DNA of 55,423 nt, taken from assembly GCA_964448935.1 (NCBI GenBank), contig CAYVBE010000003.1, forward strand, positions 1 through 55,423, written 5' to 3'. The translations under genes were made by a program, and so were the position numbers. This document shows, in pieces, positions 2,289-24,357 of the stretch. The notes beneath the pieces are model-generated. The model ran no database searches, had not been told where the DNA came from, and saw only the letters and a list, made by a program, of their open reading frames with translations. Source of the DNA: an uncultured candidatus Brocadiaceae bacterium (GTDB taxonomy: Bacteria > Planctomycetota > Brocadiia > SM23-32). Each line of letters opens with the position of its first letter. Positions within the stretch are counted from its first letter, which is position 1.

Positions 2289-2366
2289 CCCGGCGACCGG
2301 GCCTCGCCAGCATTGCAGGACCGCAGCCGCTGTGTTACCATCAGCTCAGGCATCCGAAGGGGGGTT

Positions 2367-3230: not shown

Positions 3231-3292
3231 TGCCGGTCCGACATTATTCGGCCCGGGCGAAGATTCCCGCCCGTGTCGGGTGGGAATCTTCG
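3220..3292 (+). terminator. Tandem stem-loops immediately after the pcm stop codon
   Basis: Hairpin 1 is a perfect 13-bp stem, GGGCCGAATAATG (3220-3232) paired with CATTATTCGGCCC (3242-3254), with a 9-nt loop. Hairpin 2 is CGAAGATTCCCGCCCG (3258-3273) paired with CGGGTGGGAATCTTCG (3277-3292), a 16-bp stem with one G-U and a 3-nt loop. There is no strong U-tract, so intrinsic termination is not certain. Confidence 0.5.
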
Positions 3293-3330
3293 TCGGTTAC
3301 TGGCCCTCTTAACCCTTAAGGAACGCTCAA

Positions 3331-6493: not shown

Positions 6494-9400
6494 TCAGCCG
6501 CCGGACCCGGTCAGCCAGGGCAGCCGGCGGCTCGCCTGCTGGACGTTCCACAGCAGTGTTCCGCCGGACGGCGTGATCGCCAGGCGGACCCCCACATCGG
6601 CGAACATAGACTTCTCCGATTCCAGCGGCTCCGGACCGCCCCCGATCTCCGGCGAGGACAGCGCGCTGGGGCCGCCGGCGTAGAACCGGCCGGTCTCGTC
6701 GCAGAGGAATTCCGCCACGTTGCCGATCACGTGCAGGAATGGCCCGGGACTGCCCTCGCGCACGCTTTGGAACCACAGCAGACCGTCGTCCGCGTCCTGG
6801 GTCTCCGGCGCTCCGGCGTCGTCGTAACCACCCACGTCAAAAGAACCGTCCAGCGGCAGGCGCCGCGAGAGCATGTGCTCCCCTACCATCCGGTTGACGT
6901 ATTCCCACTGCCGCAGCCACGTCCGGTCGCGCAGGTTCCATGCGGGCTCAGCGCCGGGAGCGGCTTCACACGCCGCCCGCGCCGCCTTCCACTCGTCCGG
7001 ACGGGGCAGGCGACAGCGGAGAATCTGTTCCGCAAACAGACGGGCACCGACCCCGGAAAGGTAGCTCATGGGTGAATCCGCGTTGGGCAGCGGTCCACCG
7101 CCCTCCCCGGGCCGCACGCCCTCGGCATACCGCGAAATATCGCTCCAGACGGGGTCCTCGCAGACCCATCGGTCGGCGATCACGATGCGCTCGCGGTCCG
7201 AGACCCAGCACCGCGGTCCCTGGCGCATCAGCCCCCTGCGCGCGTCCAGGTGGGGGCGCATCTCGTCCCACAGGCCGGCGGCCTCCACCGCATCCATGAA
7301 CAGGCCGACGGGGACCTCCGTGACGCACAGATACGCGGGCGATGCACCGGAGCCCGTCGGCTCGACGCGCTCAAAGACCAGCTCGTGTCCCTTCCCCGCC
7401 CACCGGTAGGCGAACCGGCGCGGAAATCCGTCCGCCTCCACGTGCCATTTCGCCCATTCAACCGCGGCGGGGCCCGGCGGCACCTGCTCCGGCTGCTGCT
7501 CGGAATCCAGCAGTTCTTCCAGCCCGGCCAGCGCTTCGGACACGGCCGGGACGTCGCTCACGCCGTCCGGCAATGCGCGGACCGCCGCCGCGAAGTCCTC
7601 CACCCGCCGTCGCACCTGCCCCTCCGAGGGCGCGCCGCTCAGCGAGTCCTCCAGCTCCATCCGCAGCACGTTGTAACGCACACGGGGCGGCAGCGCCTCA
7701 TCCCCCTCCTCCGTGAACTCATCGCACATCCGCACCGCTTCGGCCACGCTGTTCTGCTCGGCAAGACCCTGCACGCAGTCCAGCCATCGCCGCTTCTGCT
7801 CTGCCCGGTATTCCTCATGCAGAACCCCACGCCGCTGCTCCGACGGGATGCCCTCAATGGCCGCGCGCACCGCCGCCCTGAGGTCCAGCTCGGCGCGCAA
7901 CGGCGCCGTGCCCGCCGGCTGCTCGATGCGCCCCAGCCTGCGCCAGGCCGTCAGCACCAGTTCCGGGCGGTCCGACGTCTCGACCAGGCTGAGCAGCTCG
8001 GCCCGGGATGCCCGGCTGTCCGCGGCGACCAGGGCGTCCAAGCGCTCCATCGCCGGCGCCATGGCCCCGGCCACCCGGGAGCGGGCCATGACGTCGTGCC
8101 GCTTCCAGCGATCGAGTATCCGCGCGATCGTCTCCTGCTCATCGGCCGGCGCCTCGTCGGGCCGGTACGCCAGATCCACCATCTGCTCCAGGCGCTCGAA
8201 GTCCGCCACAAGCCGCGCCAGGTCCTGCTGTAGCTTCTCAAAAGCAGCCGCCTCGCGGCGGGCGGCATCGGTCCCGGCAGGCGTGCCCCCTTCCCATTCG
8301 GTCTGCTCCAGCGCGCGTCGGATCGCCTCCTCCCGCTCGTCGGGCAGCGCCTCGCGCAACGCGTCCTTCCAACCCCGTCCGGCCGGCAGTTCGACGACCG
8401 CGGGGAAGAGCTTTTCGATGTCTTTCAGCGACTTCTCGAGGTCCTCGATCCGAGTGCGCCGGTCAACGTAGAGGGACCTGTCGGCCTGCAGCCCCGCCGC
8501 CGTCACGTCTCCCAGAAACCGGTCCCGCCGACGCTCCCATTCGGCGTTGATCGCACCCGAGTCGGAGATGCGCCACCGGCCGCGCATGGCGTCCAGCCAC
8601 TCGCGCGGCGGCATGCAGGAGGGAACATCTTCCCGCAGGCCAAGGACCGCGGCGGCGGCCTCCTCTTTTTCCGCCCGGACCTGCGCCCGATTCATGGCCA
8701 CGGGGGCCACGGAAGGGTAGGCAGCGACCTTCTCTTTCAGAGCGTCGAGCCTGCCCCTCAGCGCCGGACGCCGGGCCTCCGGCTGACAGCCGATATCCTT
8801 CTCCACCATGGTCAGGGTCTGGCGCCACTCCTCGGCGTCCCGCTCGAAATCTCCGGTCAGACGGAAGTAGTCCGGGGCATCGGCCAGCCATGCTTCCAGG
8901 TCCTCGGCCCCTACCGGCTCCCCGAACAGTTCCTCCTCGCGGGGCTGAAAAGAAGGCCAGGCCACCCTTTGACCGTTGTTTCCCAGGAAGTCCTTCAGCT
9001 TCCGGCCGACCTCCTCCACACTCGCCAGCCGGTCCGCGAGGGCCCGCAGGCCCTGCCCCTTGAATTCCATCCGGCCGGTCGCATACCCGGAGAACGCGTC
9101 CACCACCATCGAGTCCGACCCGGCCGCCGCAATGCCCCGCTGCAGTTCCTCGACACGCCTCCAGCGCCCGGCCACCTGCAGCACGAACTCGACGTCCGCC
9201 GCCAGCTTCCGGAGCCTGCTCGCCAGCGCCTCGACGTCCCCGGCCCCGCCGGGCTGCAGAGAATCCCTCAGATACGCGTAGAACGAACCGGAGTCACCCT
9301 TACCGTCCATCCCGGCCAGGCCGGTCTCCAGCGTCTGCGCGGCGGAATCCACGGCCGAAAGGTGCCCGCGCGCGTTCTCCAGCCGCGTGACCAGGGCCTC

Positions 9401-11116
9401 CCCGCCGGCGGCGTCGGCCTCCGCCGCCCAGGCGGCAACAGTGGCCACCATCGGCGGCAAAAAAGCATGTTCCCTCGCGTCAATCCCGCCCGCGACTTCC
9501 TCCGTGGCCCGCCACTGCTGCAGTATCTTCGCGTGAGCCAGGACCTCCTCGACGCCGTCGGCCAGGCGGGGGGCGGGCCTGACCCTGTCCGCCGAAGCGC
9601 GCAGCCGAGCCGCCGTCTGCGGCCAGCCCAACTGCTCGGCCCGCTGCGCGAACCGGCGCACCTGCTCAAGCAACGGCCAGTCCGCCAACTCAAAAGCGGC
9701 CTCGATCGCACGCGCGGTCGAGACCGCTCTTTCCTCCGGCTGCCCGTCCGGGCTCTTGCCGGGGTCGAACTCGGTGCCCGTGGCACGCGCATCGGCCAGG
9801 GCCTGCACCACGTTGCGGTTCAGCCAGGGGTCCGCAACCCACTGATCGTGGTGCTCGCGCGCCCGCGCGTAGACGTCCCCGAACCACTCTTCGTAGGTCG
9901 CCGAATACGCGGACCCGGCGGCATCGTCGGCAGTGGGAGCCTGGCCGGGCGCTTCGGCCTCCGGCTCGGGCGGCCCGCCGCCGCCCCCGAAAAGGAGGGC
10001 GGCCAGCACGATAAGCAGTATGACGACGACCGTGATGATGATCCAGAGCGGTTTGGGCAGGCCCCGGCCGGGGGGCGAAGGGATCGGCTGCCGCTCGCCT
10101 CCCCCGTCCGCTCCGTCAGCCCTGGCAGGCGTGAAGGATTCCCCGCCGGATCGCGCGTCCTCCACCGCACGATCCACATCTTCCACAAACTCGTCGTCCA
10201 GCGTGAAGGGGATGTCGGTGGCCAGCGGCAGTTCGTCCTGCCCGACCGCCAGGCAGAAAAGCTCGTCGGCCGTGGGCGCGCCGGCGATCACGTCCAGCCA
10301 GTCATAGTCCAGCGGCCGCAGCAGCAGCAGGGGCGCATCCGGGTGAAGCTGTGTGCGCATGAAGTCCGTCCATAGCTGCAGGGCTTCCTCCGGCGATTCG
10401 GTGCAGCGCGGGACGCGCATCCTGGCGGGTGGCCTGCCCTCGGCGGCTGCGCCGGGCCGGAAGCTGTCCGGCAGATAGCCGCCCATCTGGCGCTGGATCT
10501 CGTAGAACACCCGGTGGATGTGCTGCTCGCCCTCCGGCAGGTGTTCGGCCAGCCTGGCCAGCGCCGGGCCGCCGGCCTCGGTCACGGGGGCGGAGTCCGG
10601 CACGTCCGCGGCCTGCAGCCGCAACTCCCGGCGCGTGACGTCCAGTATGGAGACGACGTCGTCGGCCGACCCGGCCGCGCTGCACCGCTGCTCGACGTCT
10701 TCCAGGCGGGGCAACACCTCTCTGAGCAGCCAGTCCACCGGCAGGCGCCGGCACTGGGCGCAGACGAGCATGGGGTAGCGACGCCCCTTGGCATCCTGAG
10801 AGGGCCACATGCGGCCGACCACCACGTCCTGGGGCAGGTGCCACAGCAGGACCTGCCGGAACCGGTTCTGGAGGTCCGGGTCCTGAGGATCCCCCCATGC
10901 GCCGGACTGCAAATTGCCTCCGATGCCCTGCACCAGCAGTCTGTCGCGCACACCGATCAGGCGGTGTGTATCGAGTCCCTCGCTCAGAAAATCGCCCCAC
11001 CCCGGGTGCTTGCCGAACGCACCCAGGTGGATACGCTCGTCGCCCCCTTCTTCGGTGCGACGCAACAGCTTGCCCACCACGGTGGAGATGGTGGAGTCAC
11101 CCGGGTGCGCCGTCAT
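6494..11116 (-). CDS. tagF: TagF-domain single-pass membrane protein with a ~1150-aa extracytoplasmic module ending in an FGE-sulfatase-like domain
   Basis: The N-terminus carries the TagF signature (HLGAFGKHPGWGDFLSEGL; WPSQDAKGRRYPMLV). There is one TM helix and a long helical-looking region. The C-terminal ~300 aa have FGE-sulfatase motifs. The ORF-track start is GTG 11137. ATG 11116 has GAAGGAG 7 nt upstream and overlaps the tssM stop as TGATG, so it is the likelier start. Confidence 0.8.
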   Translation of the reverse strand: MTAHPGDSTISTVVGKLLRRTEEGGDERIHLGAFGKHPGWGDFLSEGLDTHRLIGVRDRLLVQGIGGNLQSGAWGDPQDPDLQNRFRQVLLWHLPQDVVVGRMWPSQDAKGRRYPMLVCAQCRRLPVDWLLREVLPRLEDVEQRCSAAGSADDVVSILDVTRRELRLQAADVPDSAPVTEAGGPALARLAEHLPEGEQHIHRVFYEIQRQMGGYLPDSFRPGAAAEGRPPARMRVPRCTESPEEALQLWTDFMRTQLHPDAPLLLLRPLDYDWLDVIAGAPTADELFCLAVGQDELPLATDIPFTLDDEFVEDVDRAVEDARSGGESFTPARADGADGGGERQPIPSPPGRGLPKPLWIIITVVVILLIVLAALLFGGGGGPPEPEAEAPGQAPTADDAAGSAYSATYEEWFGDVYARAREHHDQWVADPWLNRNVVQALADARATGTEFDPGKSPDGQPEERAVSTARAIEAAFELADWPLLEQVRRFAQRAEQLGWPQTAARLRASADRVRPAPRLADGVEEVLAHAKILQQWRATEEVAGGIDAREHAFLPPMVATVAAWAAEADAAGGEALVTRLENARGHLSAVDSAAQTLETGLAGMDGKGDSGSFYAYLRDSLQPGGAGDVEALASRLRKLAADVEFVLQVAGRWRRVEELQRGIAAAGSDSMVVDAFSGYATGRMEFKGQGLRALADRLASVEEVGRKLKDFLGNNGQRVAWPSFQPREEELFGEPVGAEDLEAWLADAPDYFRLTGDFERDAEEWRQTLTMVEKDIGCQPEARRPALRGRLDALKEKVAAYPSVAPVAMNRAQVRAEKEEAAAAVLGLREDVPSCMPPREWLDAMRGRWRISDSGAINAEWERRRDRFLGDVTAAGLQADRSLYVDRRTRIEDLEKSLKDIEKLFPAVVELPAGRGWKDALREALPDEREEAIRRALEQTEWEGGTPAGTDAARREAAAFEKLQQDLARLVADFERLEQMVDLAYRPDEAPADEQETIARILDRWKRHDVMARSRVAGAMAPAMERLDALVAADSRASRAELLSLVETSDRPELVLTAWRRLGRIEQPAGTAPLRAELDLRAAVRAAIEGIPSEQRRGVLHEEYRAEQKRRWLDCVQGLAEQNSVAEAVRMCDEFTEEGDEALPPRVRYNVLRMELEDSLSGAPSEGQVRRRVEDFAAAVRALPDGVSDVPAVSEALAGLEELLDSEQQPEQVPPGPAAVEWAKWHVEADGFPRRFAYRWAGKGHELVFERVEPTGSGASPAYLCVTEVPVGLFMDAVEAAGLWDEMRPHLDARRGLMRQGPRCWVSDRERIVIADRWVCEDPVWSDISRYAEGVRPGEGGGPLPNADSPMSYLSGVGARLFAEQILRCRLPRPDEWKAARAACEAAPGAEPAWNLRDRTWLRQWEYVNRMVGEHMLSRRLPLDGSFDVGGYDDAGAPETQDADDGLLWFQSVREGSPGPFLHVIGNVAEFLCDETGRFYAGGPSALSSPEIGGGPEPLESEKSMFADVGVRLAITPSGGTLLWNVQQASRRLPWLTGSGG
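6497..7414 (-). other. FGE-sulfatase (SUMF1/TagR-type) domain, apparently non-catalytic
   Basis: AYLCVTEVPVGLFMDAV, SPMSYLSGVGARLFAEQILRCRLPRPDEWKAA, HVIGNVAEFLCDE, YAGGPSALSSP, FADVGVRLA. There is no Cys-x4-Cys pair after the GG(S) motif. Confidence 0.7.
9989..10048 (-). other. Transmembrane helix of the TagF fusion
   Basis: LWIIITVVVILLIVLAALLF. R/K residues (GRGLPKP) lie on the N-terminal side and GGGGGPPEPEAEA on the C-terminal side, which fits an N-in topology. Confidence 0.75.
10208..11050 (-). other. TagF (DUF2094-type) domain, predicted cytoplasmic
   Basis: Residues ~30-310, numbered from GTG 11137. The GxFGKxPxxGDF and PSxDxxGRxxPL motifs are as in P. aeruginosa TagF1, recalled from memory. 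Confidence 0.75.
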
Positions 11117-14100
11117 CAAGGACTCCTTCGCGGCCACTTGTCCGGATCGGGAAACGGCCTCTCAAACTCCAGTTTCAGCTTCAGCGGAAGGGTCTCCTGC
11201 TGGAAGGCCATACGCTGAACTTCGAGTTCAACCGTCCACACCTTGCCCCCCTGGTGCGGGCTGGCTGACCAGACGTGCCGCTGCCCGCCCCGGCCGGGCT
11301 CATCTGCCGCCCCTTCGTGCAACAGGCGCACGGCCCCCCACTGTGAGCCGGGCATGATTCGCTTGTCCGGCTGGTCCGGAGCGTCGGCCGGGTACCGGAA
11401 CAGCTCCAACTGGAAAGTGCCCGGCACCTCGACTGTGCCGAGTTCCTGCGCCTCGGGCATCGAGGTGGCGTATGGCTTCTCATTGTTCAGGGCAATGACG
11501 CGCCAGAACCCGACCGTGGTCGTCTCCTGCTCGCTCGGCAGGATGACCACGCACTTCAGCGGTTCGTCCTCGGGCAGTGCGCTCAGCACTGCCGAGACCC
11601 TGTCGAGCAACTCCCGGTCCTCCCGGTCGAACACCTCCGGCCAGCGCAGGTTGTCCAGGCGCCGGTCAATCTCGTCGGAGCCCACCCGCAAGCCGGCGCC
11701 GATGGTCTCCGGCACGGGGGCCGGCAGAATGCGCTCCACGGCCTGGCGCACGAGTGCGATCTCGGCCGTGGTCAGGTCATCGTCGGGATCGCCGGGCGGC
11801 ACGGCCAGCGGGAACCGCAGGTTGGCCTTGATCCTCAGCAGGTCAGGTCGGACCGCCTGCCCCGCCTCCCGCGCCAGCGAGCTGACGCCCTCCAGGGCGA
11901 GGCCCTCCCAATAGTGGAAGGCCAGATCCTCTCCCCTCCCTGACGCCGCCTTCACGGCGTATTCCTCCATAAAACCCGTCGGCCGCAGATTCAAAACGCG
12001 TACGCGGGCGCGCGCGGCATCCTGTCCGGTCAGACCCTGCCAGCCCTGCAGCAGGTCCCCGCAGGCGGAGGCGAACTCCGACTCCGCCCGCAGCGGCTCC
12101 AGCGCATCCACCGCCATCCGGTGAATGCCGTCGTACTGCCGCCGGAGCGCATCGTCTTTCTCCAGCAGATCGTGGGCGAAACGGCAGCTCTCCGCGTCGC
12201 AGTCCAGTGCGCGGATCACCGTCTTGCAGACGCTCATCAGCACGTCGTTCATCACCTTGTGATCCGCCGCCTCCAGCGCGTCGCCGAACTGGCTCCACGA
12301 GGCCGCGCGCGGCAGCATGGCGGTGTTGGGCACGGTATCCGTCCAGTACTCCAGGTAGCGTCGGGCGTATTCCTGAGCCGTCGTCGCCACGGAGGCGTAC
12401 TGCTGCTCCAGCTCGTCCTTGTCCAGAAGCTCCTCCTCGGGATCGCGGATCCGCTGCCCCAGCGCCGACCAGGCCTGCAGAAGCGCCCGCCCGGCGTCCG
12501 GATGCAATTCCGGGGCAAACCCGTCTTCCTTCAGTTGGGTCAGCGGCAGTTCGGGCACGTCCAGGGGGGCGATCCCCCCCTCCGCCACAAGGTCCGCGAC
12601 AGCCTGCTGGAATTCCTCGACCGTGGCCGGGGCGTCTTCCAGCATCCGGCGGGCAAGCTCCGAGCGGCGCATGCGATGGGAGGCCCGCAGCACGAAACGC
12701 CCGCAGTCGGTCGCCTCGCCCACCCGGTAGGCATCGGCGGCGACGGACTCCAGCGCTCCCATCGCGGCGACGGCCTCCTTGAAGTCATCCTCCATGGACT
12801 TCAGCAGCGCGGGCAGCCTGAGCGGGCTGATGTCCGCCTCCCCGGCGTCTCCCAGACCCCGGTCGGCGCGTGAGTAGATGAACAGCCGCGCGCGGTAGAG
12901 CCACGGGGCATCTCCCAGGTCGCCAGCCCCCTCGCCCGACAGGCCGCTGTCCGCCAGGGAAACCGGCGCCAGGAATTCCTGCTGCACCGTCCCCAGGCGT
13001 TCCTCGAAGGGGGTGGCAGCAATCGTGCTCACGGCTTCCTCGGGTTCTTCGGCTGCTTCGGATTCTCCGCCTTCCTCGGCGGCCTCGCCCGCCTCGGGCG
13101 CGGATACCTGCAGCGCGGCCGTCCGTATCCGCTCGGGCAGCCCCGCCACGTCGCCCTCGGCCCATGCTGTCTCCAGCAGTTCGATGATGGCCGCCTCCAT
13201 GGCCTGGAGTTCTCCGGCAAACCCCTTGTGGGCCTCCAGGGTCTCCTCCGCCAGGTCTTCGCGCCACGGCTCGCCCGCCCCGCCGGAGCCCGGCAGGCGC
13301 CCGAAGAACGCCTGCACCCGGCCCTTCAGGTCGTTGCGCGCACGATGGTAGGCAAGCGTGATGTCCCCGGTCTCGGCCAGGCAGGGGGCGGCGGCGATGA
13401 GCTCGTCCAGCGCCTGGCCTTTCTCGCGAAGGGCGCCGTACTTCTCCTCCCATTGGGTCCGCAGGGCCTGGAACGCCGCGGAGTCCTCCGGCAGCCCCCT
13501 GTCCTGCGCCGCGGTCAGAGACGTGAGCAGCTCGGCCTCCGAGTCCCCCAGGCCGGAGAACTGAGCGGCGATCTGGATGAGCTGTTCGGCACACTCATAG
13601 ATGGAGTCCGCGCCGTCCGCACTCTTCAGGGACCGAATAAACGCCGCCAATCCGTTGCGCAGCAGGGAGTTGTCGGAAAACGGTTCCTGCTCGACGACCC
13701 GGTCGGGCGTGACGCACGTGGTGTGCTCTGCACCGGTGTACACCCAGTTCAGGTCCTCCTGGAGCGCCGTAACGTCCTCGGCCGCCAGCTCGCGCTGGTT
13801 TTCGTTGAACACGTAGAAGAAAAGGGGCTTCAGTTGCGGCACGTCGGGCTCACCCTCGGCGGGCTGCTCGGGGGCGGTTGCCGGCTGGAGCTTCCGGGAG
13901 TAGCCCCGCAGGCGCACCAGCTCGACCAGTGCGTCGGTGGCCGCCGGCGACCACGGCCGGTCGGCGGCCCCGGACATCTTCTCGGCCGCCCCCAGCGCCA
14001 GTGGTCCCACCACGCTGCGTTCCAGCAGCTCCGCGTAGGTCCGGGCGCGGTTCTTCTGGGAAAGGCTCTCGCTCCGCAGGGCCGCAGCCAGAGCAAAGAT

Positions 14101-15732: not shown

Positions 15733-15734
15733 TT

Positions 15735-16463
15735 TCAGTTACCCTCCTCTTCGGGCGACTCTGTCGTGGTCGCGATAGTCGTCTGCCCCTCCGATACGGC
15801 CTTGAGGGATTCTTCCAGTTCTTTGCCCGCGCTTTCGTACAGGGCGACGTTGGCCACGAAGAAGACAATGATCAGGGCAACGAAGATCAGAGCGATGGTC
15901 AGCAGCTTGCGGCCCGGCGGCTCGGTCAGGTCGCGGGTGTCCACGTGCTCGTATGCCTGCGGACAGATCGGCTTGGTCTCGTCCACGTCTATATCGCGGC
16001 GTATGCGGGCGGCAATCTGCTTCATCTTCGCCTGCAGCTTCTCCTCCCGGCGGGCGTACATCCCGGTGAACCCCAGACCGATGCAGGTGTAGAAGACCAT
16101 CAGCCGCTCGTTGGCCTCCTTGCTGTCATCGGCCAGGGTCTCGTCCAGGAGATGGAAGAACTTCTCGTCTCCCGCGAGTTCCTTCAGCTCGTAGGCGATC
16201 CGGTTTTCGTCCCACTGCCGGGCGAATTCCAGATCGCTCTCGGCGATCATGGAGTCCGCGAAGAACACGAGGGGCAGTTTGACGTTTTCGTACTGTTCGG
16301 ACAGCAGGTGGTCGCCGGCGGCGCGGCCCTTCAACTCATCGAACAGAAGGGACTTCATCCGCGCCCGCACCTCTTCCATCTGCGGCTCCGCCCCTTTGCG
16401 CGGAGACCGGTTCAGTGCGCACACGTACTGAAACAGCGGCTCAACCAGCTTCAGCAGTTTCAC
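15735..16463 (-). CDS. tssL: Type VI secretion membrane-complex subunit TssL (DotU family)
   Basis: 242 aa with a GTG start. DotU-like N-terminal domain (LVEPLFQYVCAL...PLVFFADSMI). Single C-terminal TM helix LLTIALIFVALIIVFFVANVALY. Confidence 0.88.
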   Translation of the reverse strand: MKLLKLVEPLFQYVCALNRSPRKGAEPQMEEVRARMKSLLFDELKGRAAGDHLLSEQYENVKLPLVFFADSMIAESDLEFARQWDENRIAYELKELAGDEKFFHLLDETLADDSKEANERLMVFYTCIGLGFTGMYARREEKLQAKMKQIAARIRRDIDVDETKPICPQAYEHVDTRDLTEPPGRKLLTIALIFVALIIVFFVANVALYESAGKELEESLKAVSEGQTTIATTTESPEEEGN

Positions 16464-16464
16464 T

Positions 16465-17841
16465 TCACCCTCCGGTCTCGGTCAGGGTCATGTACAGGGT
16501 AACGTCGAAGTCCGAGGAGGCCATGCCCGGCCAGCGAACGGCCAGGGCCATGTCCTCCTCCACGATCTCCCACAGCTCCCGCTCCCGGGGCTGGTCCACG
16601 CGGAAGTACGTGAGCCCCGGCGGCGAGGGCAGCTCCAGCGGCGTGTAGTGCTCCTCCACCAGCTTGAACCCGAAGACGGCCCGGTCCCCCAGGCTCTTCG
16701 GCATCAGCTTGAATTTGCTGGCGTCCTGCACGAGCTGAATAACGGTGGCGGGGTCCTCCTTGGAGCGCACGCCCAGGTAGTAGGCATTGGGCTCGGTAAG
16801 GTGGCGCTGCTCCAGGTCGGCAACCCAGAACTCCTCCTCCCGTCGGAAGGGCACGCTGAGGAACTTCTCGCCCACGGCACCCTTCAAGAGCGCCCGTATC
16901 TTGTTCGAGAGGTCCTGCAGGGACACCAGGGGGTTGTCGTGGTCGTAGGGCTCCGCCACCTGGTCGCCGGCGCCGGGCGTCAGGGAGGCCAGCTCGCCCA
17001 GAAGGGCCTTCAACTCCACGTAAAGCTCGAAGGGGGTGACCGCCGGCGCCTCCACCAGGCTGGTCAGCCGGGCGGCGTAGCGGTGCAGCGTGCGCAGCCT
17101 CAGCAGCAGCCGCAACTGTGTGCCGCGCACCTCTTCCCGGGTCAGCGTCTCCGGGCTCATCTTGTTGACCAGTTCCTTGCGGCTGGCGTCCACCTGGTCC
17201 GCCAGGTCCCGGGCGACGCCGTGTAGCCTGCGCGACCCGCGCAGCACCAGGCAGGGCGGCGCGAAACCGGGATCCTCGCGCGGCAGGCCCACGTCCTCGC
17301 CCGTGCCGTGGCGCACCCTCAGCAGGGGTATGACCTCCATGTCCGACTGGTCGTCCGTCTCCAGCAGCAGCCGCGCGTTGACGCGGCGGATCACCACGGG
17401 CTGGGCATTCTGGCCGGTGTTCTCATCGAGGCGCTGCGTCTCCTCCAGGCGGTACAGACGCTTGACGCGCCACTGCTCCTCGCCCTCTTCCTCGATGACG
17501 TTGGCCCGACCCTCGTACCATAGCGGCACGCCCAGGTAGATGGTGAGTTCGCCCCCGGAGCCCGCGAACGCCTCCTCGATGTTCAGGGCGGGCAGGTCGG
17601 CGTTTTCGGGCACGTTCACTTCCAGCCCGCCGGGCATCACCACCTGCAGCTGGTCGAACCGCACCAGCATGTTCTCCAGCGCGTCGGGGGACAGTCTTGC
17701 CCGCACCACCCCGTAAGGATAGCTCCAGGCCAGGCGTCTCTCCTGCCGGACCTTCTCCAGCATCCCCCGCTGCATGGACTGAAGGTGGTGAGGTCTGAGG
17801 AAAAGCCCCTCGTGCCAGTGGACGTCGCCGCCGCTCGCCAT
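16465..17841 (-). CDS. tssK: Type VI secretion baseplate subunit TssK
   Basis: 458 aa with the N-terminal signature VHWHEGLFLRPHHLQSMQR. Located directly upstream of tssL. Confidence 0.92.
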   Translation of the reverse strand: MASGGDVHWHEGLFLRPHHLQSMQRGMLEKVRQERRLAWSYPYGVVRARLSPDALENMLVRFDQLQVVMPGGLEVNVPENADLPALNIEEAFAGSGGELTIYLGVPLWYEGRANVIEEEGEEQWRVKRLYRLEETQRLDENTGQNAQPVVIRRVNARLLLETDDQSDMEVIPLLRVRHGTGEDVGLPREDPGFAPPCLVLRGSRRLHGVARDLADQVDASRKELVNKMSPETLTREEVRGTQLRLLLRLRTLHRYAARLTSLVEAPAVTPFELYVELKALLGELASLTPGAGDQVAEPYDHDNPLVSLQDLSNKIRALLKGAVGEKFLSVPFRREEEFWVADLEQRHLTEPNAYYLGVRSKEDPATVIQLVQDASKFKLMPKSLGDRAVFGFKLVEEHYTPLELPSPPGLTYFRVDQPRERELWEIVEEDMALAVRWPGMASSDFDVTLYMTLTETGG

Positions 17842-17856
17842 GCTATCTCCTCTCGT

Positions 17857-18747
17857 TTACCGCTTTTTCCTTCCCGTCTTCAACAGGTCCGCCACAAACT
17901 GCCGATAGGCTTCCATGAACTCCTGCTCGATAGTGCCCTGGTTCATGTCGGCGCCCACTTCTGCGTATTTCTCCCAGTACTTCAACTCCCAGCCCTCGTA
18001 GATGCGCTTGCCGTCAATGCGGGCCAGCGCCTGAATCTCCGAGGGGGCGAACCGCGCGTGCCTGCTTGCAAACTTCTGCAGCGTGGGCTTCAGGGCGGCC
18101 AGCAGGGCCAGCAAAGTGCGCCGCAGGTGCGAGAGCAACGTCTCCAACTGTGTCGCGTCGTCGTCCGTGCCGCGCGCGAGGAAACGCTTCAGGACGGCCA
18201 TCATGTCGCCCTCGTAGGGCGCACCGCCCGACACCCCCAGGTTACCCCAGACCTTCTTCAGGTGCTGGTCCAGCTTGCTGCTGAACCACGCCAGCAGGAC
18301 CAGGGACCGCGCCATGCGCTCCGCCGGAACGGCCTCCACCTCCAGCACTTCCGTCATTGCCGAAGAGCCGGAGGAAGCCCGCCTGACCGGCAGGCCGGCC
18401 TCCGCCAGACGCCTCGCCAGGTCCTCCCGCGCCTCCGGAGGCAGGGAACCCACCAGCGCGATCAATTCGTGAAGCTGCTCCTCTTCGCTGACGGGGGGGC
18501 CAGGGGCCGGGGCAGCGTCCTTGCGGGCCCGGCTGCCGGGGAGCGCGCGCGGAAAGTGCTCGCCCAGCCTGTTCAGGAAACGGCGCCGCTCCTCGTCCGA
18601 TGCGCCGGCCAGCGCCCGGCGCACCTCCCGTGCCAGGTGCTTCCGCCGTTCCTCCGCCGGAGCGTCGGCAAAATCCACCTGCAGCAGGCGCAGCCTGTTG
18701 GCCGCCTGCTGAACCCGCCTGTCCAGTTCGCTCATCGCCTGAGGCAT
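17857..18747 (-). CDS. Fha/TagH-position protein resembling only the C-terminal part of TagH; no FHA domain
   Basis: 296 aa. Occupies the fha1 position of the H1-type order (fha-...-tssK-tssL-tssM-tagF). The C-terminus (SHLRRTLLALLAALKPTLQKF...FAPSEIQAL...KYWEKYAEVGADM...EQEFMEAYRQ) resembles the recalled TagH C-terminal domain pattern. No GR...SRxH FHA motif anywhere. GGGAGAAAGG Shine-Dalgarno upstream. Confidence 0.45.
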   Translation of the reverse strand: MPQAMSELDRRVQQAANRLRLLQVDFADAPAEERRKHLAREVRRALAGASDEERRRFLNRLGEHFPRALPGSRARKDAAPAPGPPVSEEEQLHELIALVGSLPPEAREDLARRLAEAGLPVRRASSGSSAMTEVLEVEAVPAERMARSLVLLAWFSSKLDQHLKKVWGNLGVSGGAPYEGDMMAVLKRFLARGTDDDATQLETLLSHLRRTLLALLAALKPTLQKFASRHARFAPSEIQALARIDGKRIYEGWELKYWEKYAEVGADMNQGTIEQEFMEAYRQFVADLLKTGRKKR

Positions 18748-18801
18748 TGCCTTTCTCCCGGCGGACCGACCGGCTCCACAAAGTCGCTAAGTTCGACCCC
18801 A

Positions 18802-18866
18802 TATATACTGCCGACGCCGACTTTTTGCAAGCCTATATCCCTCGGCGTTTACTTATTATATCCCTC
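18802..18866 (-). promoter_or_regulatory. Candidate internal promoter with an upstream direct repeat, ahead of fha-like-tssKLM-tagF
   Basis: On the - strand: TTGCAA (18830-18825), 17-nt spacer, TATATA (18807-18802). Two perfect copies of GAGGGATATA lie just upstream (+ strand TATATCCCTC at 18834-18843 and 18857-18866, 23 bp apart). This is the AT-richest patch of a 156-nt spacer. Confidence 0.4.
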
Positions 18867-18903
18867 CCACGTACAACTGTGACTTCCCCGCCGGGGCAAC
18901 CCG

Positions 18904-21900
18904 TCACCGCCCGGCGCTCTCGACAGCACTCAGGTCACTGCGCAAGTAGCCGGCATGTTCTCGCAGCGCCTCCCGCAGGCCCCATGCCAGCGACTCTCCC
19001 GTCGGGGAAAGCGCCAGCCGAAGCCCGATGTCCGAGTAATGCGTCGAGACGTCCTGCTGCGACAGGGGCTGGGCCTGGAGAGGGGGCACATCCGGGGAGC
19101 TGAGCGCCGACCCTCCCACCACGTAGTAGCGGCCGGCATCATCGCTCAGAAACTCCGCCACGTTCCCGATCAGATGGCGGAAGGGATCGCCTCGCGGAGC
19201 CTCTACGCTCTCGAACCACAAAACCCCGTCGCTGCCGTCGTAAGCTCCGGCGACGGCGGCGCCCAACTGCTGCCGGAACACGCCTTCGTTCGGCCACCGG
19301 GGCCGGACCATCTCCTCCTGCACGCGGCTTTCCACGTAGCGCCACTGGCGCGCGTAGGTCTCGTCGCGCAGGTTCCAGACCGCCGGGCTGATCTCGGCGT
19401 TCACCAGTTCGGCGGCCTTTCGCCATTCCGCCGGCGTCGGCAGACGGCAGTTCATGACCTCCCCGGCGAACTGCCGCGCACCCTCGGCGTTGATCCAGTG
19501 CATGGGGCAATCGCCCTGCGGGGGCGGCACGTTCAGCCCCTCCGGGTAGTCCGTCGTCCACTCGGGGTCGGGCGTGAGCCATCGGGTCCCCGTCGCGATG
19601 CGCTCCCCGTCCCATTCCCAGCCGCGCGGTCCCCTCGGGCTGCCACGGGGGTCGAGGCGGGGCTTGAGGGCGGGCCATTGGCCGGCAGCCTCGACCGCCG
19701 CTGCGAAAAGGGATACGGAGACCTCCCGCGTGGACAGATAGCCCGGCGGCGCCCCGTCCGGCTCGACGCGCACAAAGGTCAGCTGGTGGTCCGTGCCCGG
19801 CCACGAGTAGGCCACGCGCTCCGGAAAGCCGCTCTCGTCCACCCGCCACGCGCCCCACGCCACCTGCCGCGGACCCGCGGGAGGCGCAACACCGGGCTTC
19901 TCGTCATTCAACAGCGCGTTGACCTCACCCACGAGGCCCGCCACCGGTCCGGCCGCCTTCAGCCCGTCCGGCAGGCCTTCCACCGCCGCCAGGAAGCCCT
20001 CGGCCAGCGGGCGCGCCTTCTCCTCCGCCGGCAGCTCCGTGCCGGTCACGGCCTCCGACAACTCGTAGAGCAGGGCATCGTAGCGCGCCCAGGCCGGCAT
20101 CTGCTCCGCCGTCACGCCGAACTGCTCTCTCAGGTCCAGCGCGGCCTCGATCTCGTCGCGGTCCGACAACTGCTCGAAACCGCGCACCCAGCGGCCCGGC
20201 CGCGCCGCTTCACGCCCGGCCTGCAGCTTCTCGCTGCGGTCGGCGTCGGTCAGCCCGTTGATGAACCTCTGCGCCCTGCCCCGCAGCTCCAGCGCTTGCC
20301 GCAGGTCAGCCAGTCCGCCCGGCCAGGACACCTCGTCCAGCCGGCGCCAGGCCGTCACCACCAGTTCCACCCGGTCGGCGCTCTCGACCAGCCGCACAAG
20401 CTCGGCGGGGGACTCCGAAGCATCCGCCTCCATCAGGGCGTGAACGCGCCCGAGAACAGGCTCCAGCGCCTCGGCAACCCAGTCCCTGGTCAGCACGCCG
20501 TGGGCCCTCCAGCGCGCGGCTGTCTCGGCGATCGTGCTCTGCCCCTCGCCGGGCGACTCGTCGGGCCGGTAGGCGAGGTTCAGCAGGCGTTCCAGGCGGT
20601 CGAAATCGTCAACAAGCTGCCGCAGGTCCTCCTGGAACTGCGCGAACGCATCGGCCTCCTGCCGCAGCGCATCCGTGTTCGTCGGCCTGCCGTCCTGCCA
20701 TTCCAGACCTGCCAGGGCGTCGCGGAACACCGCCCGTCGCCCCTCGGGCAGGGCCTTCCGCAGGCTGTCTTTCCAGCCCGGCCCCGCCGGCAGTTCTGCG
20801 GCCGGGGGAAACATACCCTCGATCTCTTTCAGCGCCTTCTCGATCTCCTCCACCACCGCCCGGAGTTCCACGTAGCGGGTCCTGTCGGCCTCCAGCGTCT
20901 CCGCCGTCACGTCGGCGATGAGCCGGGCTCTGCGGCGGCGCCACTCCGCGTTGACCGCCTCCGAGCCGCCGATCTGCTCCTTGGAGCGGACCGTCTGCAG
21001 CCAGTCGGCCGGCGGCAGAACGGGCGGCACCTCGGCCAGGAAATCGTCCACGCTCTTCGACAGCTCGTCCCGCCTGTTGCGGATCGTGTCCTCGTTCTTC
21101 GCAACGGGCGCCAGCTTTGCGAAGGCGCCGATGTCTTCCCGGAGCCCGGGCAGCTTCTCCTTCAGGTCCCGGGACTCGGCCAGTCCGAGCTGAATCCCGT
21201 CCTCTATCTCCTTCTCGGCCGCATCCAGCTTCTCGTTCCACAGCCGCACGGTCTGCCCCGGGTCCACGCTCAGCCGGAAGTAGTTCGGCGCCTGCGCCAG
21301 CCAGTTCTCCAGGTCTTCCGCCGCCACCGACTCCGCCGGCAACTGCTCCTCGACCGGCCGGAACAGCTCCTTGTCCACCCTCTTCCAGTCCCCTTCCAGG
21401 AATTCCTTCAGGCGCCGTCCGACGGACTCGGCCGCCTCCAGCCTGGCCTTGAGGGCAAGGAGGCCCTCCTGCCGGAACTCAACCTGCGCCGCGGCGTATC
21501 GAGAAAACGCGCCGGCCACCTCGGAATCCGGGCCGGCGGCGATTTCCATCTCCAGCTTTGCCACGTTCTTCCGGCGCAGCACGACCTGCTGGACCAGCGT
21601 CACGTCCTCCTCGAGCGTCTTCAGTTCCTGCGCCACCCCTGCCAGGCTGTCCGCCGCGCCGGCCGCCATGAGCTTGCTCAGATATCTGGCAACCGCCCCG
21701 TCGTCGCCTTCCAGGGCCTTCGCAAGCGTGCTGCCCGCTTCCTGGATCGTGGTCACGTGAGCGTCCGCCTCCTGCAGCCACTCCAGGAAGGGCTGCGCGC
21801 CGGCCGCCTGGGCCTTCCGGGCCTCTTTGCGCAGAAGCGTCAGAAGATGCGGCAGGGAGCCCTGGCCCTCCTGCACGCTCCGGACCCGGCTCTCCAGCGC

Positions 21901-23163
21901 ATCCCATTGCCTGCGGACCTCGCACAGCACCAGCAGCTCGTCCACGGCGGGCCCCAGTTCCGCACAGAGATGCAGCTTCTGCAGGTGTCCTCGCACGGTG
22001 TTGGCCGTCTCCTGCCAGCCCAGCTCTGCGCAGGCGGCGGCAAAGGTCTCCATCTGGGCCGCCGCCGGCCAGGAGGATTTCGCCTGCTGCAGGGCTCCCT
22101 TCACCTCGTCCACGGTCTTCACGGCGGTGGTGTCGGCTTGCGGGCCGGACACGGTGGCCTCCGTGAAATCCACCCCCATCGCGCGCCCCCCCAGGATGGG
22201 CGTGACGACCTTTTCGTCCAGCCAGGGGTCCGCGCCCCAGCGTTCGCCCTGGTAGCGCTCGTAGACCGGCCCGAACCAGGTCCACGTCTCCACCCCATCG
22301 GTGTCCGCCCCGCCGTTCTGCCGTCCATCGCGCAGGACGAACCACGCCCCTGCCCCCGCAAGCGCCAGGACCGCCAGTCCGACAAGCACGTAGCGGAGCG
22401 GGGCTCTCTTCCCCTCCCGCAGGCCGTCGAGGGCCGCCGCCAGGTCATCCAGCGTCTGCAGGTCGGCGGGCAGCGAGGGCTGCAGCAGTTTGTTGCACAG
22501 TTCCAGCCACTCCTCGTGCCGGTCCCCCAGGCGGCGCCATTCGGGGGTTGACTCGACCGGCCACGGGGTGGTGTCCCGCAGTTCACGGTGGAGGACGAGC
22601 TGGTATATCAGCCGTCCGAAGGCGCGCAGGTCGCTCTCCCCGTGCTCGGCGCGTCTGAGTTCGGTATCCGGCAGCGGATCGGTGAGGAAGACGCAGGGGG
22701 CGGCGCCCTTTCCCACCAGCAGGTTGGAGGGTTTCAGGTTGCCGTGCGGACGGTCACCGGCCGCCTTGAGTTCCCGCAGGCCCTCCACCACGGAGTCCAG
22801 CAGGGAGTGGAGGTCCGGCCCGCCCAACCGGATGCGGCCGGTGATCAGGTTCTCGACGGACTGAGGGTAGCGGTCGGTGACGTAGTATGCGCCCTGCCCG
22901 TCCGCAGTGGAACCGTAATCATGGACGGGGGCCCAGCGCCGCGCGCCGGAAGCCACCACCTGCTGCTGCAGCCGTGCGGCCTGCAGCAGCGCCTGAGCCC
23001 TGGAGCGCTGGCCCTCCTCGTCCCAGAAAGCGGCCCCCGGCTCCTGGGCTTTGACCGCAAGTCCGTCCCCAGCCGACCCGTCCTTCGCGCGTGCAGCATA
23101 GACCACGCGGCCACCAACACGGTATAGTTCCCGGGTGGTCTCGTAGTCCCCAAAAACAGGCAT
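18904..23163 (-). CDS. PpkA-like Hanks-fold (probable pseudokinase) single-pass membrane protein with an FGE-sulfatase-terminated ectodomain
   Basis: 1419 aa. N-terminal kinase fold (LAVKA, YYVTDRYP, HGNLKPSNLL, FLTDPLP, SDLRAFGRLIYQLV). One TM helix. Then a ~1130-aa module colinear with the TagF-fusion ectodomain. GAGGAGG Shine-Dalgarno before ATG 23163. Confidence 0.8.
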   Translation of the reverse strand: MPVFGDYETTRELYRVGGRVVYAARAKDGSAGDGLAVKAQEPGAAFWDEEGQRSRAQALLQAARLQQQVVASGARRWAPVHDYGSTADGQGAYYVTDRYPQSVENLITGRIRLGGPDLHSLLDSVVEGLRELKAAGDRPHGNLKPSNLLVGKGAAPCVFLTDPLPDTELRRAEHGESDLRAFGRLIYQLVLHRELRDTTPWPVESTPEWRRLGDRHEEWLELCNKLLQPSLPADLQTLDDLAAALDGLREGKRAPLRYVLVGLAVLALAGAGAWFVLRDGRQNGGADTDGVETWTWFGPVYERYQGERWGADPWLDEKVVTPILGGRAMGVDFTEATVSGPQADTTAVKTVDEVKGALQQAKSSWPAAAQMETFAAACAELGWQETANTVRGHLQKLHLCAELGPAVDELLVLCEVRRQWDALESRVRSVQEGQGSLPHLLTLLRKEARKAQAAGAQPFLEWLQEADAHVTTIQEAGSTLAKALEGDDGAVARYLSKLMAAGAADSLAGVAQELKTLEEDVTLVQQVVLRRKNVAKLEMEIAAGPDSEVAGAFSRYAAAQVEFRQEGLLALKARLEAAESVGRRLKEFLEGDWKRVDKELFRPVEEQLPAESVAAEDLENWLAQAPNYFRLSVDPGQTVRLWNEKLDAAEKEIEDGIQLGLAESRDLKEKLPGLREDIGAFAKLAPVAKNEDTIRNRRDELSKSVDDFLAEVPPVLPPADWLQTVRSKEQIGGSEAVNAEWRRRRARLIADVTAETLEADRTRYVELRAVVEEIEKALKEIEGMFPPAAELPAGPGWKDSLRKALPEGRRAVFRDALAGLEWQDGRPTNTDALRQEADAFAQFQEDLRQLVDDFDRLERLLNLAYRPDESPGEGQSTIAETAARWRAHGVLTRDWVAEALEPVLGRVHALMEADASESPAELVRLVESADRVELVVTAWRRLDEVSWPGGLADLRQALELRGRAQRFINGLTDADRSEKLQAGREAARPGRWVRGFEQLSDRDEIEAALDLREQFGVTAEQMPAWARYDALLYELSEAVTGTELPAEEKARPLAEGFLAAVEGLPDGLKAAGPVAGLVGEVNALLNDEKPGVAPPAGPRQVAWGAWRVDESGFPERVAYSWPGTDHQLTFVRVEPDGAPPGYLSTREVSVSLFAAAVEAAGQWPALKPRLDPRGSPRGPRGWEWDGERIATGTRWLTPDPEWTTDYPEGLNVPPPQGDCPMHWINAEGARQFAGEVMNCRLPTPAEWRKAAELVNAEISPAVWNLRDETYARQWRYVESRVQEEMVRPRWPNEGVFRQQLGAAVAGAYDGSDGVLWFESVEAPRGDPFRHLIGNVAEFLSDDAGRYYVVGGSALSSPDVPPLQAQPLSQQDVSTHYSDIGLRLALSPTGESLAWGLREALREHAGYLRSDLSAVESAGR
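18907..19815 (-). other. FGE-sulfatase (SUMF1/TagR-type) domain, apparently non-catalytic
   Basis: YLSTREVSVSLFAAAV, CPMHWINAEGARQFAGEVMNCRLPTPAEWRKAA, HLIGNVAEFLSDD, VVGGSALSSP, YSDIGLRLA. No catalytic Cys pair. Confidence 0.7.
22333..22392 (-). other. Transmembrane helix of the PpkA-like protein
   Basis: YVLVGLAVLALAGAGAWFVL, preceded by REGKRAPLR, which fits an N-in topology. Confidence 0.7.
22459..23163 (-). other. Kinase-like domain with substituted catalytic motifs
   Basis: HGN replaces HRD (Asn codon AAC at 22738-22740). The Gly-rich loop is degenerate (YRVGGRVVY). DPL replaces DFG. No clear APE motif. Confidence 0.65.
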
Positions 23164-23193: not shown

Positions 23194-23748
23194 TCAGTCT
23201 GCGGACGGAGCCATCGTCTTCATCAGTCCGCCCTTGGTAACCAAAACGTGCAGGGCCTTCGGCCAGAAAAGCGACCACCAGGGCCAGGGGCCCTTCAGGA
23301 TCAGGCGCCTGGGGTCCTGCTTGCCGGGACGGTCGGGAAAGCCGGGCAGGTTCGCCACCACGAAGACGTATCGGGCCTGCCGCTGCCTCCAGCGCCGTCT
23401 CACGCGCCTCCACAACTCCCGGCTTTCCCGCCACGGCCGCTGTAGATCGGCGTGGCCCCGGCCGAATGCCATCACGTAGGCATAGCCGAGGTCCGTGGCG
23501 CTCTCATACAGAGGATCGCCCGGAGAGAAGTAGCGGCTCATCGAGTAGTGCGCCCATTTCTGGTATTCCTCCTCGCTCACGCCGACCAGGTGGACCTCCG
23601 TGGAGACCTCGCGGAGGCCGGCGTGCATGCGCGCGTCAATCTGCGGCCCGACGCCGTGGGCCCGCACAAAAGAGCCGCACCCGGTGGCAGCCAGAGCAAA
23701 AAACGCGACCAGCGCCAGGCCACTCTTGCCGATGGAACGGCCGTGCAT
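23194..23748 (-). CDS. Lipoprotein, paralogue 2 (TssJ- or TagQ-candidate)
   Basis: Lipobox LAATGC after a hydrophobic signal. ATG 23748 has GAGAGG upstream; the ORF track extends to 23811. By eye more than half of positions are identical to the upstream neighbour (STEVHLVGV, GDPLYESATDLGYAYVM, YVFVxANLPGF, DPRR). Confidence 0.6.
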   Translation of the reverse strand: MHGRSIGKSGLALVAFFALAATGCGSFVRAHGVGPQIDARMHAGLREVSTEVHLVGVSEEEYQKWAHYSMSRYFSPGDPLYESATDLGYAYVMAFGRGHADLQRPWRESRELWRRVRRRWRQRQARYVFVVANLPGFPDRPGKQDPRRLILKGPWPWWSLFWPKALHVLVTKGGLMKTMAPSAD

Positions 23749-23850
23749 AACGTTACCTCTCATTCTCTCGCCACAGAACCGTCGGAGCGCACGCTCCGAC
23801 TCCTCCGCCATTCAGCCCGGTCTGCCGCCCGGCAGACGGACGACCCGGCG

Positions 23851-24357
23851 CTACCCGCCCGACGGCGGCGTCGCCCGGATGAGGCCGCCCTTTGTGATCA
23901 GAACGTAGACGGGTTTTCCGGGAATGTCCACGATCATGCGCCTGGGGTCCTGCTCCGCCGGCCGGTCGGCAAACCCGGGCAGGTTTGCCAGCACGAAGAC
24001 GTAATCCGCGCCGCGCTGAGCCCACTTCTCACTCACACGGTCCCACTTCTCCGGGTTATGCACCCACGGATGCTGCACGTCGGGCTGGCCGCGCCCGAAC
24101 TTCATCACGTAGGCATAGCCCAGGTCCGTGGCGCTCTCATACAGGGGGTCCCCCGGAGCGAAGTACTCGCTCACCGAATAGTACGCCCACCTCTGGTGCT
24201 CCTGTTCGGTCACACCCACCAGGTGGACCTCCGTGGAGATGTCGCTGACGGCCTCGTGCAGGCGCACGCCCACCCTGTTGGTGCCGCACCCGGATACCGC
24301 CAGCACGACCAGCGCAAAGAACAACAGCCCCTTCCTCCCGGCCAACCCCCACCTCAT
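23851..24357 (-). CDS. Lipoprotein, paralogue 1 (TssJ- or TagQ-candidate)
   Basis: 168 aa with signal peptide and lipobox (LLFFALVVLAVSGC). The size and the pattern EVHLVGVTEQEHQRW...YVFVLANLPGF...DPRRMIV loosely resemble the TssJ/SciN family. TssJ is otherwise missing from a cluster that has TssL and TssM. Confidence 0.6.
   Translation of the reverse strand: MRWGLAGRKGLLFFALVVLAVSGCGTNRVGVRLHEAVSDISTEVHLVGVTEQEHQRWAYYSVSEYFAPGDPLYESATDLGYAYVMKFGRGQPDVQHPWVHNPEKWDRVSEKWAQRGADYVFVLANLPGFADRPAEQDPRRMIVDIPGKPVYVLITKGGLIRATPPSGG

Follow-up and report, generated by a model that had tools for sequence, protein, structure and literature searches.

We analysed 55,423 nucleotides (the window; contig CAYVBE010000003.1 of assembly GCA_964448935.1, from an uncultured candidatus Brocadiaceae bacterium), in which a type VI secretion system (T6SS) cluster carries two large membrane proteins with related ectodomains. 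The window has a GC content of about 62-71% (2-kb windows), and the cluster is complete and co-directional, running on the minus strand from about 43.7 kb down to 6.5 kb. Its first part encodes TssA, TssB, TssC, Hcp, TagJ/ImpE, TssE, TssF, TssG, ClpV, VgrG and a PAAR protein, followed by a block of unknown genes and then by TssK, TssL and TssM. The gene directly downstream of tssM encodes a TagF domain fused to a transmembrane helix and a large ectodomain (T), and the gene upstream of u296-tssK-tssL-tssM encodes a membrane protein with a kinase-like head (K), so that the membrane-complex and baseplate genes tssK, tssL and tssM separate the two paralogues (Table 1). For T we favoured the ATG at 11116 over the GTG at 11137 as the start, because a 93%-identical relative (P0001) begins at the ATG; this codon shares one base with the stop codon of tssM.

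Architecture of the two membrane proteins

A sequence-only reading of this DNA had proposed that the TagF fusion and a PpkA-like protein carry paralogous copies of one ectodomain of about 1130 amino acids (aa), and that only their cytoplasmic heads differ. BLASTP bears out both statements. A single colinear alignment joined residues 418-1537 of T to residues 296-1401 of K, with 40% identity over 1133 residues, 56% positives, 40 gaps and 738 bits (E = 0), and the heads showed no similarity to each other; the five sequence blocks quoted in that reading were all found in the translations, and both open reading frames (ORFs) were present as described. In Smith-Waterman comparisons the two ectodomains scored 2055 against 61 +/- 7 for shuffled sequences, and the approximately 800 residues that precede the C-terminal domain, which resembles formylglycine-generating enzyme (FGE), scored 1392 on their own against 68 +/- 14, so the similarity is not confined to the FGE-like domain. 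A compositional artefact was ruled out by the same shuffle control. Identity per 50-residue window ranged from 20% to 58%, with the peak at residues 879-1078 of T.

In both proteins one strongly hydrophobic helix separates the head from the shared region, and in T this helix is preceded by basic residues and followed by an acidic Gly/Pro/Glu stretch. We infer that the ectodomains lie in the periplasm. The exported and short TagF-side forms of relatives still carry the module behind a hydrophobic export or anchor segment, which is consistent with a periplasmic location throughout. The AlphaFold2 model of the 1130-residue K ectodomain (predicted local distance difference test score, pLDDT, 88.6) consists of helices through residue ~800 and then the FGE-like domain. 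When the complete ectodomain model was compared with the PDB by Foldseek, nothing reached significance, the best match being vinculin-like helical bundles at E 0.14, and the helical region is therefore without a solved counterpart. No relatedness was found between the ectodomain and the long TssM or other proteins of the cluster.

The C-terminal ~330 aa carry the FGE-profile motifs RLPT.EW and GNV.E. On the K protein, PF03781 reached 23.0 bits against a cut-off of 23.3; family profile A2 matched solved FGE structures at E 1.5e-8, and many homologues have precomputed PF03781 matches. An FGE needs two catalytic copper-binding cysteines between its GGS and GFR motifs. In the family this segment held no cysteine in 44 of 53 members and a single one in the other nine (9/53), and with the catalytic pair absent an enzymatic role of the domain was ruled out. 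The label "FGE-sulfatase" given by the sequence-only reading is thus right for the fold and profile and wrong for catalysis: the C-terminal domain belongs to the FGE fold without being an FGE, and appears to serve as a C-type-lectin-like binding domain.

The head of T was recognised by Pfam PF09867 (TagF_N) with 30.7 bits against a cut-off of 27, in agreement with its earlier assignment as a TagF repressor domain; TIGR03373 gave 33.8 bits, below its cut-off of 41.2. In Pseudomonas aeruginosa TagF, mutagenesis has shown that G8 K9, D15 F16 and S79 D81 R85 P88 are important for partner binding and repression, and the functional loop residues are shared with Agrobacterium tumefaciens TagF (PMC5995506). 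The T head keeps them in FGKHPGWGDF and SQDAKGRRYP (G-K, D-F, S-x-D-x3-R-x2-P), with the spacing of the TagFs in that study, and it corresponds to the ~330-aa standalone TagFs of relatives. It is a genuine TagF domain placed in a new architecture.

The head of K is more divergent. As a single sequence it gave no Pfam match at E 0.1 (Pkinase included) and no PDB match with phmmer at E 1, and the kinase fold was revealed only by a 21-sequence profile (A1) and by structure prediction. With E ~1e-7, profile A1 matched StkP and PknA, both Hanks kinases, aligning HGNLKPSNLL with HRDLKPQNILL. The AlphaFold2 model of the head (pLDDT 92, predicted template-modelling score 0.89) retrieved only protein kinases in Foldseek, with Hanks kinases at the top (probability 1.0, template-modelling score ~0.6) and PknS of Xanthomonas citri as the best match. 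The Hanks fold that had been read from the sequence is therefore upheld, and the active kinase is not. Of 87 non-redundant relatives, 74 have HGN where HRD is expected, the sole HRD belonging to a different, active kinase; the Gly-rich loop (GxGxxG) is missing, and TDP stands in place of DFG. The beta3 Lys, the catalytic-loop Asn and the DFG-equivalent Asp are kept. Judged by these motifs the head is a conserved pseudokinase, which may still bind nucleotide and which, having no canonical catalytic base, is most likely a scaffold or a nucleotide-dependent switch and not an enzyme.

No VWA domain was matched in the K protein, whose ectodomain is all-alpha plus the FGE-like domain. FHA and PP2C domains had no match in any scanned ORF of the window, even at E values up to 5 for the unknown proteins, so the H1-type threonine phosphorylation pathway (TPP) should not be assumed here. 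K thus shares the kinase fold with PpkA and lacks the other three of its four defining features (motifs, vWA, Fha/PppA), and we therefore do not file it as PpkA.

Recurrence and evolution of the pair

GTDB species representatives were scanned with a 12-sequence alignment, which returned 167 relatives, and the best 80 loci were analysed. Word-indexed searches gave about 30 clusters of each architecture, and all named ones came from metagenome-assembled genomes (MAGs) of Phycisphaerae or Planctomycetota; the ~30 homologue clusters of the K gene are ~1420 aa long with 99% coverage. The gene order u648, lipoprotein, K, u296, TssK, TssL, TssM, TagF was found in dozens of Phycisphaerae MAGs, indicating that the pair does co-occur in related genomes as a recurring module. 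T fusions lay directly downstream of tssM in all loci but one (L044). Some MAGs that bear the module are labelled Brocadiaceae, Opitutaceae or Sumerlaeota (L004/L005, L018, L022, L036), the module being otherwise found in Phycisphaerae, and these divergent labels could reflect mis-binning, mislabelling or horizontal transfer.

We then took a census of the TagF side in the 33 loci that show K, TssM and TagF together. TagF has a transmembrane helix in 17 of these, five of which also show an FGE-like ectodomain while the rest run off the locus; four of the five are short forms of ~830 aa, and long fusions of 1230-2000 aa were seen in T-centred loci. Three loci have a split form, in which a soluble TagF is followed by a separate exported helical and FGE-like protein with a signal-peptide or lipobox-like N-terminus, and two have a TagF with only a transmembrane stub. 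A second copy of the ectodomain is fused to TagF or next to it in about 20 of the 33 informative loci. As a separate observation, nine loci carry paralogues of K with the ectodomain and no T6SS genes within 10 kb (L006, L007, L010, L016, L037, L039, L070, L075, L082; mostly Tepidisphaeraceae), and the genome DAIRGS has both a T6SS-linked K copy (L053) and an orphan copy (L039).

The helical part was also found on other heads elsewhere in the phylum. An exhaustive HMMER search with this part, over 1.84 billion representative proteins, gave only 147 clusters, 58 with the pseudokinase head and 40 with the TagF head; most of the others were fragments, and a few had other heads. In P0068 the same module is attached to a canonical Ser/Thr kinase with intact G-loop, HRD and DFG, encoded beside a sigma54 activator gene. 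P0183 and P0160 have an N-terminal class III adenylate/guanylate cyclase domain (Pfam matches P0183, and the N-terminus of P0160 is closely similar) and also end in an FGE-like domain. The genes of P0068 and P0183 are not in T6SS clusters. Because kinase, cyclase, pseudokinase and TagF heads are all linked to it through one membrane helix, these findings suggest that the shared module is a sensory input domain.

Within single genomes, the T and K ectodomains were homologous in 13 of 13 pairs, sharing 25-50% of residues over alignments of 440-1133 aa. They interleaved by lineage, and did not form two clades by head, when the FGE-like domain was placed in a neighbour-joining tree (328-column alignment, 60 bootstraps). 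For the window and its closest GTDB relative, CAZNGS, 58 of the 60 bootstraps returned the grouping (T,T)+(K,K), and T and K of PMZT, which are 66% identical, were sisters in all 60. The grouping of T and K was similar in JBIQJK/CALAFV, PUMS and CAYUGQ, and one larger lineage has parallel T and K subclades. Since the ectodomains group by lineage and not by head, the tree suggests that duplication or replacement has occurred repeatedly and maintains the match between the two ectodomains. Copying from K to T would be the more economical direction, because K is near-constant and the T ectodomain variable. Nucleotide identity within T/K pairs was 66-73% in three genomes, and no near-identical gene-conversion tracts were found between the two genes at the nucleotide level in these genomes; the copies are, as far as their sequences indicate, old lineage-specific duplications or replacements and not products of ongoing conversion.

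Selection was estimated from the ratio of non-synonymous to synonymous substitution rates (dN/dS) between the window and the 93%-identical relative. Whole-gene values of 0.31 for the TagF fusion and 0.30 for the pseudokinase show purifying selection on both. The heads gave 0.10-0.22 (0.10 for the TagF head) and the helical ectodomain 0.38-0.44, compared with 0.12 for TssK. The helical ectodomain therefore evolves faster than the heads.

Several neighbouring genes are conserved along with the pair. The cytoplasmic proteins u648 and u296 had no Pfam or NCBIfam match, and profiles of their families gave no credible PDB match. Either is a candidate for the partner that TagF or the pseudokinase still lacks, and no Fha substitute was identified among these conserved neighbours by profiles against the PDB or by Pfam. 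The tandem lipoproteins u168 and u205, 53% identical to each other and matched by no Pfam model, lie just upstream of the K gene in a position conserved in related loci and are likely TssJ candidates. TssM is unusually long (1538 aa) and Pfam recognised only its N-terminal IcmF-related_N, with no match to the C-terminal domains that normally contact TssJ; among relatives its length varies from ~955 to ~1700 aa (stop-to-stop ORFs).

At the borders of the cluster, a giant ORF of 3195 aa directly upstream of tssA has an N-terminal hydrophobic segment and five DUF5649 repeats and may be a surface protein or T6SS-associated cargo. The PAAR protein has a C-terminal glycine-zipper domain and small ORFs next to it, and this area is probably the effector/immunity region of the cluster. 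At the other end, the cluster gives way to three plus-strand genes for a GH4 glycosidase, a protein-L-isoaspartate O-methyltransferase and an 820-aa polytopic membrane protein, which adjoin the TagF fusion in L087, the 93%-identical relative, as well.

Table 1. Positions of the features discussed, in window coordinates or, where a locus is named, in coordinates of that locus
Feature	Position	Strand	Basis or remark
TagF fusion gene (T)	6494-11137	minus	1540 aa from ATG 11116; 1547 aa from GTG 11137
Cytoplasmic TagF head of T, ~335 aa	10112-11116	minus	PF09867 covers residues 39-130
Transmembrane helix of T	9992-10048	minus	Residues 364-382 (1547-aa numbering); hydropathy 3.37 over 19 residues
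All-alpha region of T, putatively periplasmic, ~800 aa	7493-9886	minus	Paralogous to 19894-22278 (BLASTP, windowed identity, shuffle control)
C-terminal FGE-sulfatase-like domain of T	6497-7492	minus	Profile match; without catalytic Cys pair
Membrane pseudokinase gene (K; "PpkA-like" in the sequence-only reading), 1419 aa	18904-23163	minus	ORF and homologues
Cytoplasmic Hanks-fold pseudokinase head of K	22399-23163	minus	Residues 1-255; profile, AlphaFold2, Foldseek, motif census
Transmembrane helix of K	22333-22389	minus	Residues 259-277; hydropathy
All-alpha region of K, putatively periplasmic, ~800 aa	19894-22278	minus	AlphaFold2 model of ectodomain
C-terminal FGE-sulfatase-like domain of K, non-catalytic	18907-19893	minus	PF03781; profile against FGE structures
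u296, cytoplasmic helical protein	17857-18747	minus	Synteny in >30 loci, always between K gene and tssK
tssK, tssL, tssM (together)	11116-17841	minus	Pfam
tssK	16465-17841	minus	T6SS_VasE
tssL	15735-16463	minus	DotU
tssM	11116-15732	minus	IcmF-related_N
u205, lipoprotein	23194-23811	minus	Synteny; lipobox SGCG/TGCG (pair, 23194-24357)
u168, lipoprotein	23851-24357	minus	As u205
u648, cytoplasmic protein	24382-26328	minus	Synteny
PAAR protein	27773-28981	minus
Small ORF near PAAR gene (example)	29465-29962
Giant ORF upstream of tssA	43687-53274	minus
Three flanking genes	957-5793	plus
Split form, L047	14796-17102
Split form, L054	17669-19927
Split form, L066	17658-19916
Helical module outside T6SS, L084	6777-11510		Active Ser/Thr kinase
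Helical module outside T6SS, L085	10001-15412		Class III cyclase-headed protein

Proposed function and competing explanations

We give about even weight to the reading that T and K are matched single-pass transmembrane sensors, a pair that controls assembly of a Phycisphaerae T6SS without phosphorylation. T would be a membrane-tethered TagF, a repressor of assembly with its partner-binding loops intact, and K would be a scaffold pseudokinase that organises the TssK/L/M assembly site. Both ectodomains would bind one envelope ligand, or they would pair with each other. Paralogues of a self-associating receptor often bind each other, and matching lineage by lineage makes it more plausible that the T and K ectodomains would heterodimerise. 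Ligand-dependent pairing across the membrane could then bring the TagF head to its cytoplasmic target at the TssK/L/M site, or take it away, and firing would be gated without the kinase/phosphatase/Fha pathway. The architecture, the paralogy, the lost catalytic residues, the synteny, the recurrence and the matching by lineage are observed, and from them we infer that the module is sensory, that the two proteins pair, and in which direction each of them acts. A more specific version, which we hold only tentatively, is that K and the membrane TagF form a heteromeric switch: a periplasmic ligand or envelope damage would alter the pairing and free the TagF head from its target at the TssK/L/M site that K organises, coupling firing directly to an envelope cue by a phosphorylation-free route confined to Phycisphaerae, with repeated replacement of the T ectodomain by that of K preserving compatibility.

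Several observations weigh against the sensor pair. In 11 of the 33 loci TagF is a soluble protein of ~330 aa without a second ectodomain, and pairing is therefore not obligatory for this type of T6SS. In the three split loci no signal can pass through a TagF membrane helix, and K paralogues with the ectodomain also occur outside T6SS loci, in Tepidisphaeraceae. Only the shallow nodes of the neighbour-joining tree are supported. The retained beta3 Lys, catalytic-loop Asn and DFG-equivalent Asp may leave room for unconventional activity of the K head, and Fha or PppA could be encoded elsewhere in the genome, beyond the 55-kb window. All the organisms are uncultured MAGs, and interaction, ligand and phenotype are predictions from sequence.

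The main rival to the sensor pair is a structural role, which we judge rather unlikely. Both proteins would then be envelope-spanning struts of the Phycisphaerae T6SS membrane complex, with the helical region bridging the periplasm, the FGE-like domain anchoring it to peptidoglycan or an outer-membrane component, and the heads docking TagF and the scaffold at the baseplate. FGE-fold proteins do serve in such structures, PorK/GldK building the rings of type IX secretion. The strut model is in keeping with the near-constant and tightly syntenic K gene in the tssJ-like/tssK/tssL/tssM block, with the atypical length of TssM and its periplasmic part that Pfam does not recognise, with the occurrence of the TagF-side ectodomain as a separate exported protein, and with the membrane pseudokinase YukC, a structural hub in type VIIb secretion (T7SSb; 10.1101/2020.05.09.085852). 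It is harder to reconcile with the helical module on signalling outputs (active kinase, cyclases) outside T6SS loci, with a TagF ectodomain that is dispensable in 11 of 33 loci, and with a helical ectodomain that evolves faster than the structural core gene TssK and has no homology to TssM or other core parts. Neutral paralogy, by which the sharing of the ectodomain reflects lineage-specific duplication and domain shuffling without functional coupling, is in our view improbable. The T ectodomain is indeed variable and often absent, and the copies show 66-73% nucleotide identity without near-identical tracts, so gene conversion is not ongoing; however, three or more lineages have matched the two ectodomains independently, purifying selection acts on both copies, and the adjacency to tssM is constant.

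The sequence-only reading had suggested push-pull or heterodimerisation. In a push-pull system an active kinase of the PpkA type would activate assembly by phosphorylation and TagF would repress it, one envelope signal acting on both. The Hanks fold and bitopic topology shared with PpkA, the location in a T6SS cluster together with TagF, and the retained beta3 Lys, catalytic-loop Asn and DFG-equivalent Asp would suit it, but its activator-kinase half is not supported: throughout the family Asn stands in for the catalytic Asp, there is no Gly-rich loop, the Pfam Pkinase model fails to match even with E relaxed to 0.1, the cluster yielded neither an FHA-domain substrate or adaptor nor a PP2C phosphatase, and the ectodomain is not a vWA domain. 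We consider this system very improbable. Slightest of all is the chance that the FGE-like domains bind incoming or self T6SS effectors in the periplasm, for protection or for sensing of counter-attack, as the Tsi3 immunity proteins do. FGE-like domains are non-enzymatic protein binders in T6SS immunity, where they bind effectors (Tsi3; 10.1101/2021.05.21.445229), and the domain described here is likewise non-catalytic; against this, the two genes lie within the membrane-complex block and not beside the VgrG/PAAR effector region, the domain sits on signalling-type proteins of ~1400 aa, and no cognate effector was identified.

Relation to known systems and significance

The two sensor-pair candidates were compared with known regulators. 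PpkA (TagE; P. aeruginosa H1, Agrobacterium, Serratia) resembles K in its bitopic inner-membrane topology, with a Hanks-type fold at the cytoplasmic N-terminus and a sizeable domain in the periplasm, and in being encoded in the T6SS cluster near tagF and tssM. It differs in that K has lost the HRD Asp and the Gly-rich loop, carries ~800 aa of helices plus an FGE-like domain and not a vWA domain, and has no match to an Fha, PppA or TagQRST partner in its cluster. Known TagFs (PA0076, the Agrobacterium TagF-PppA fusion and Acinetobacter TagF) share with T the PF09867 domain, the G-K/D-F/S-D-R-P loops and the gene position directly downstream of tssM, whereas they are soluble or fused to PppA and in T a membrane helix and a ~1130-aa periplasmic domain are part of the TagF polypeptide itself. 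The Acinetobacter TagF acts without Fha and needs TagZ, a single-pass membrane partner with a periplasmic domain (bioRxiv 10.64898/2025.12.08.692957). T is like it in two respects, a cluster without an Fha/TPP match and a tie to a single-pass membrane element with a periplasmic domain.

Outside T6SS, the membrane pseudokinase YukC/EssB, which is central to T7SSb, has the same layout as K (an N-terminal cytoplasmic pseudokinase, one transmembrane helix, an extracytoplasmic domain and a gene in the secretion cluster), a likeness of architecture alone. YukC/EssB is a non-enzymatic hub of another secretion system in another phylum, and its ectodomain is much smaller and unrelated. The FGE/SUMF1 family (PF03781), including Tsi3, is similar over the C-terminal ~330 aa, and as in Tsi3 the domain appears to be a binding scaffold and not an enzyme; it differs here in having no copper-binding Cys pair, in standing on the long helical stalk of a signalling-type membrane protein and in belonging to no effector-immunity pair. 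The receptor Ser/Thr kinases and class III cyclases P0068, P0183 and P0160 have the same helical module after one transmembrane helix, and differ in their catalytically intact signalling heads and, for P0068 and P0183, in genes located outside T6SS clusters.

In a recent review of accessory factors of the T6SS, TagF figures solely as a soluble regulator sequestering TagH, and the terms pseudokinase, sulfatase and Planctomyc do not occur. The arrangement was not described in anything that our literature searches on T6SS combined with Planctomycetes, Phycisphaerae, pseudokinase or formylglycine turned up, nor did these searches reveal a T6SS study for the class Phycisphaerae. The best reading is that the paired membrane TagF and pseudokinase are a recurrent arrangement, undescribed in the searched literature, and a new variant of known T6SS regulators.

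The arrangement bears on how TagF represses without Fha and a kinase/phosphatase pathway, and on the route by which envelope signals reach TagF, for which a 2025 preprint points to a membrane partner with a periplasmic domain in Acinetobacter. The fusion of TagF to a membrane helix and a periplasmic domain, with the same domain on a pseudokinase of the same operon, offers a testable model of transmembrane TagF control, for which the relatives provide a natural series of soluble, split, short-fusion and long-fusion TagFs. The finding also extends the accessory proteins of the T6SS by a pseudokinase, delimits a periplasmic module that had not been characterised before and is common to signalling proteins of the Planctomycetota type, and documents a T6SS type in Phycisphaerae.

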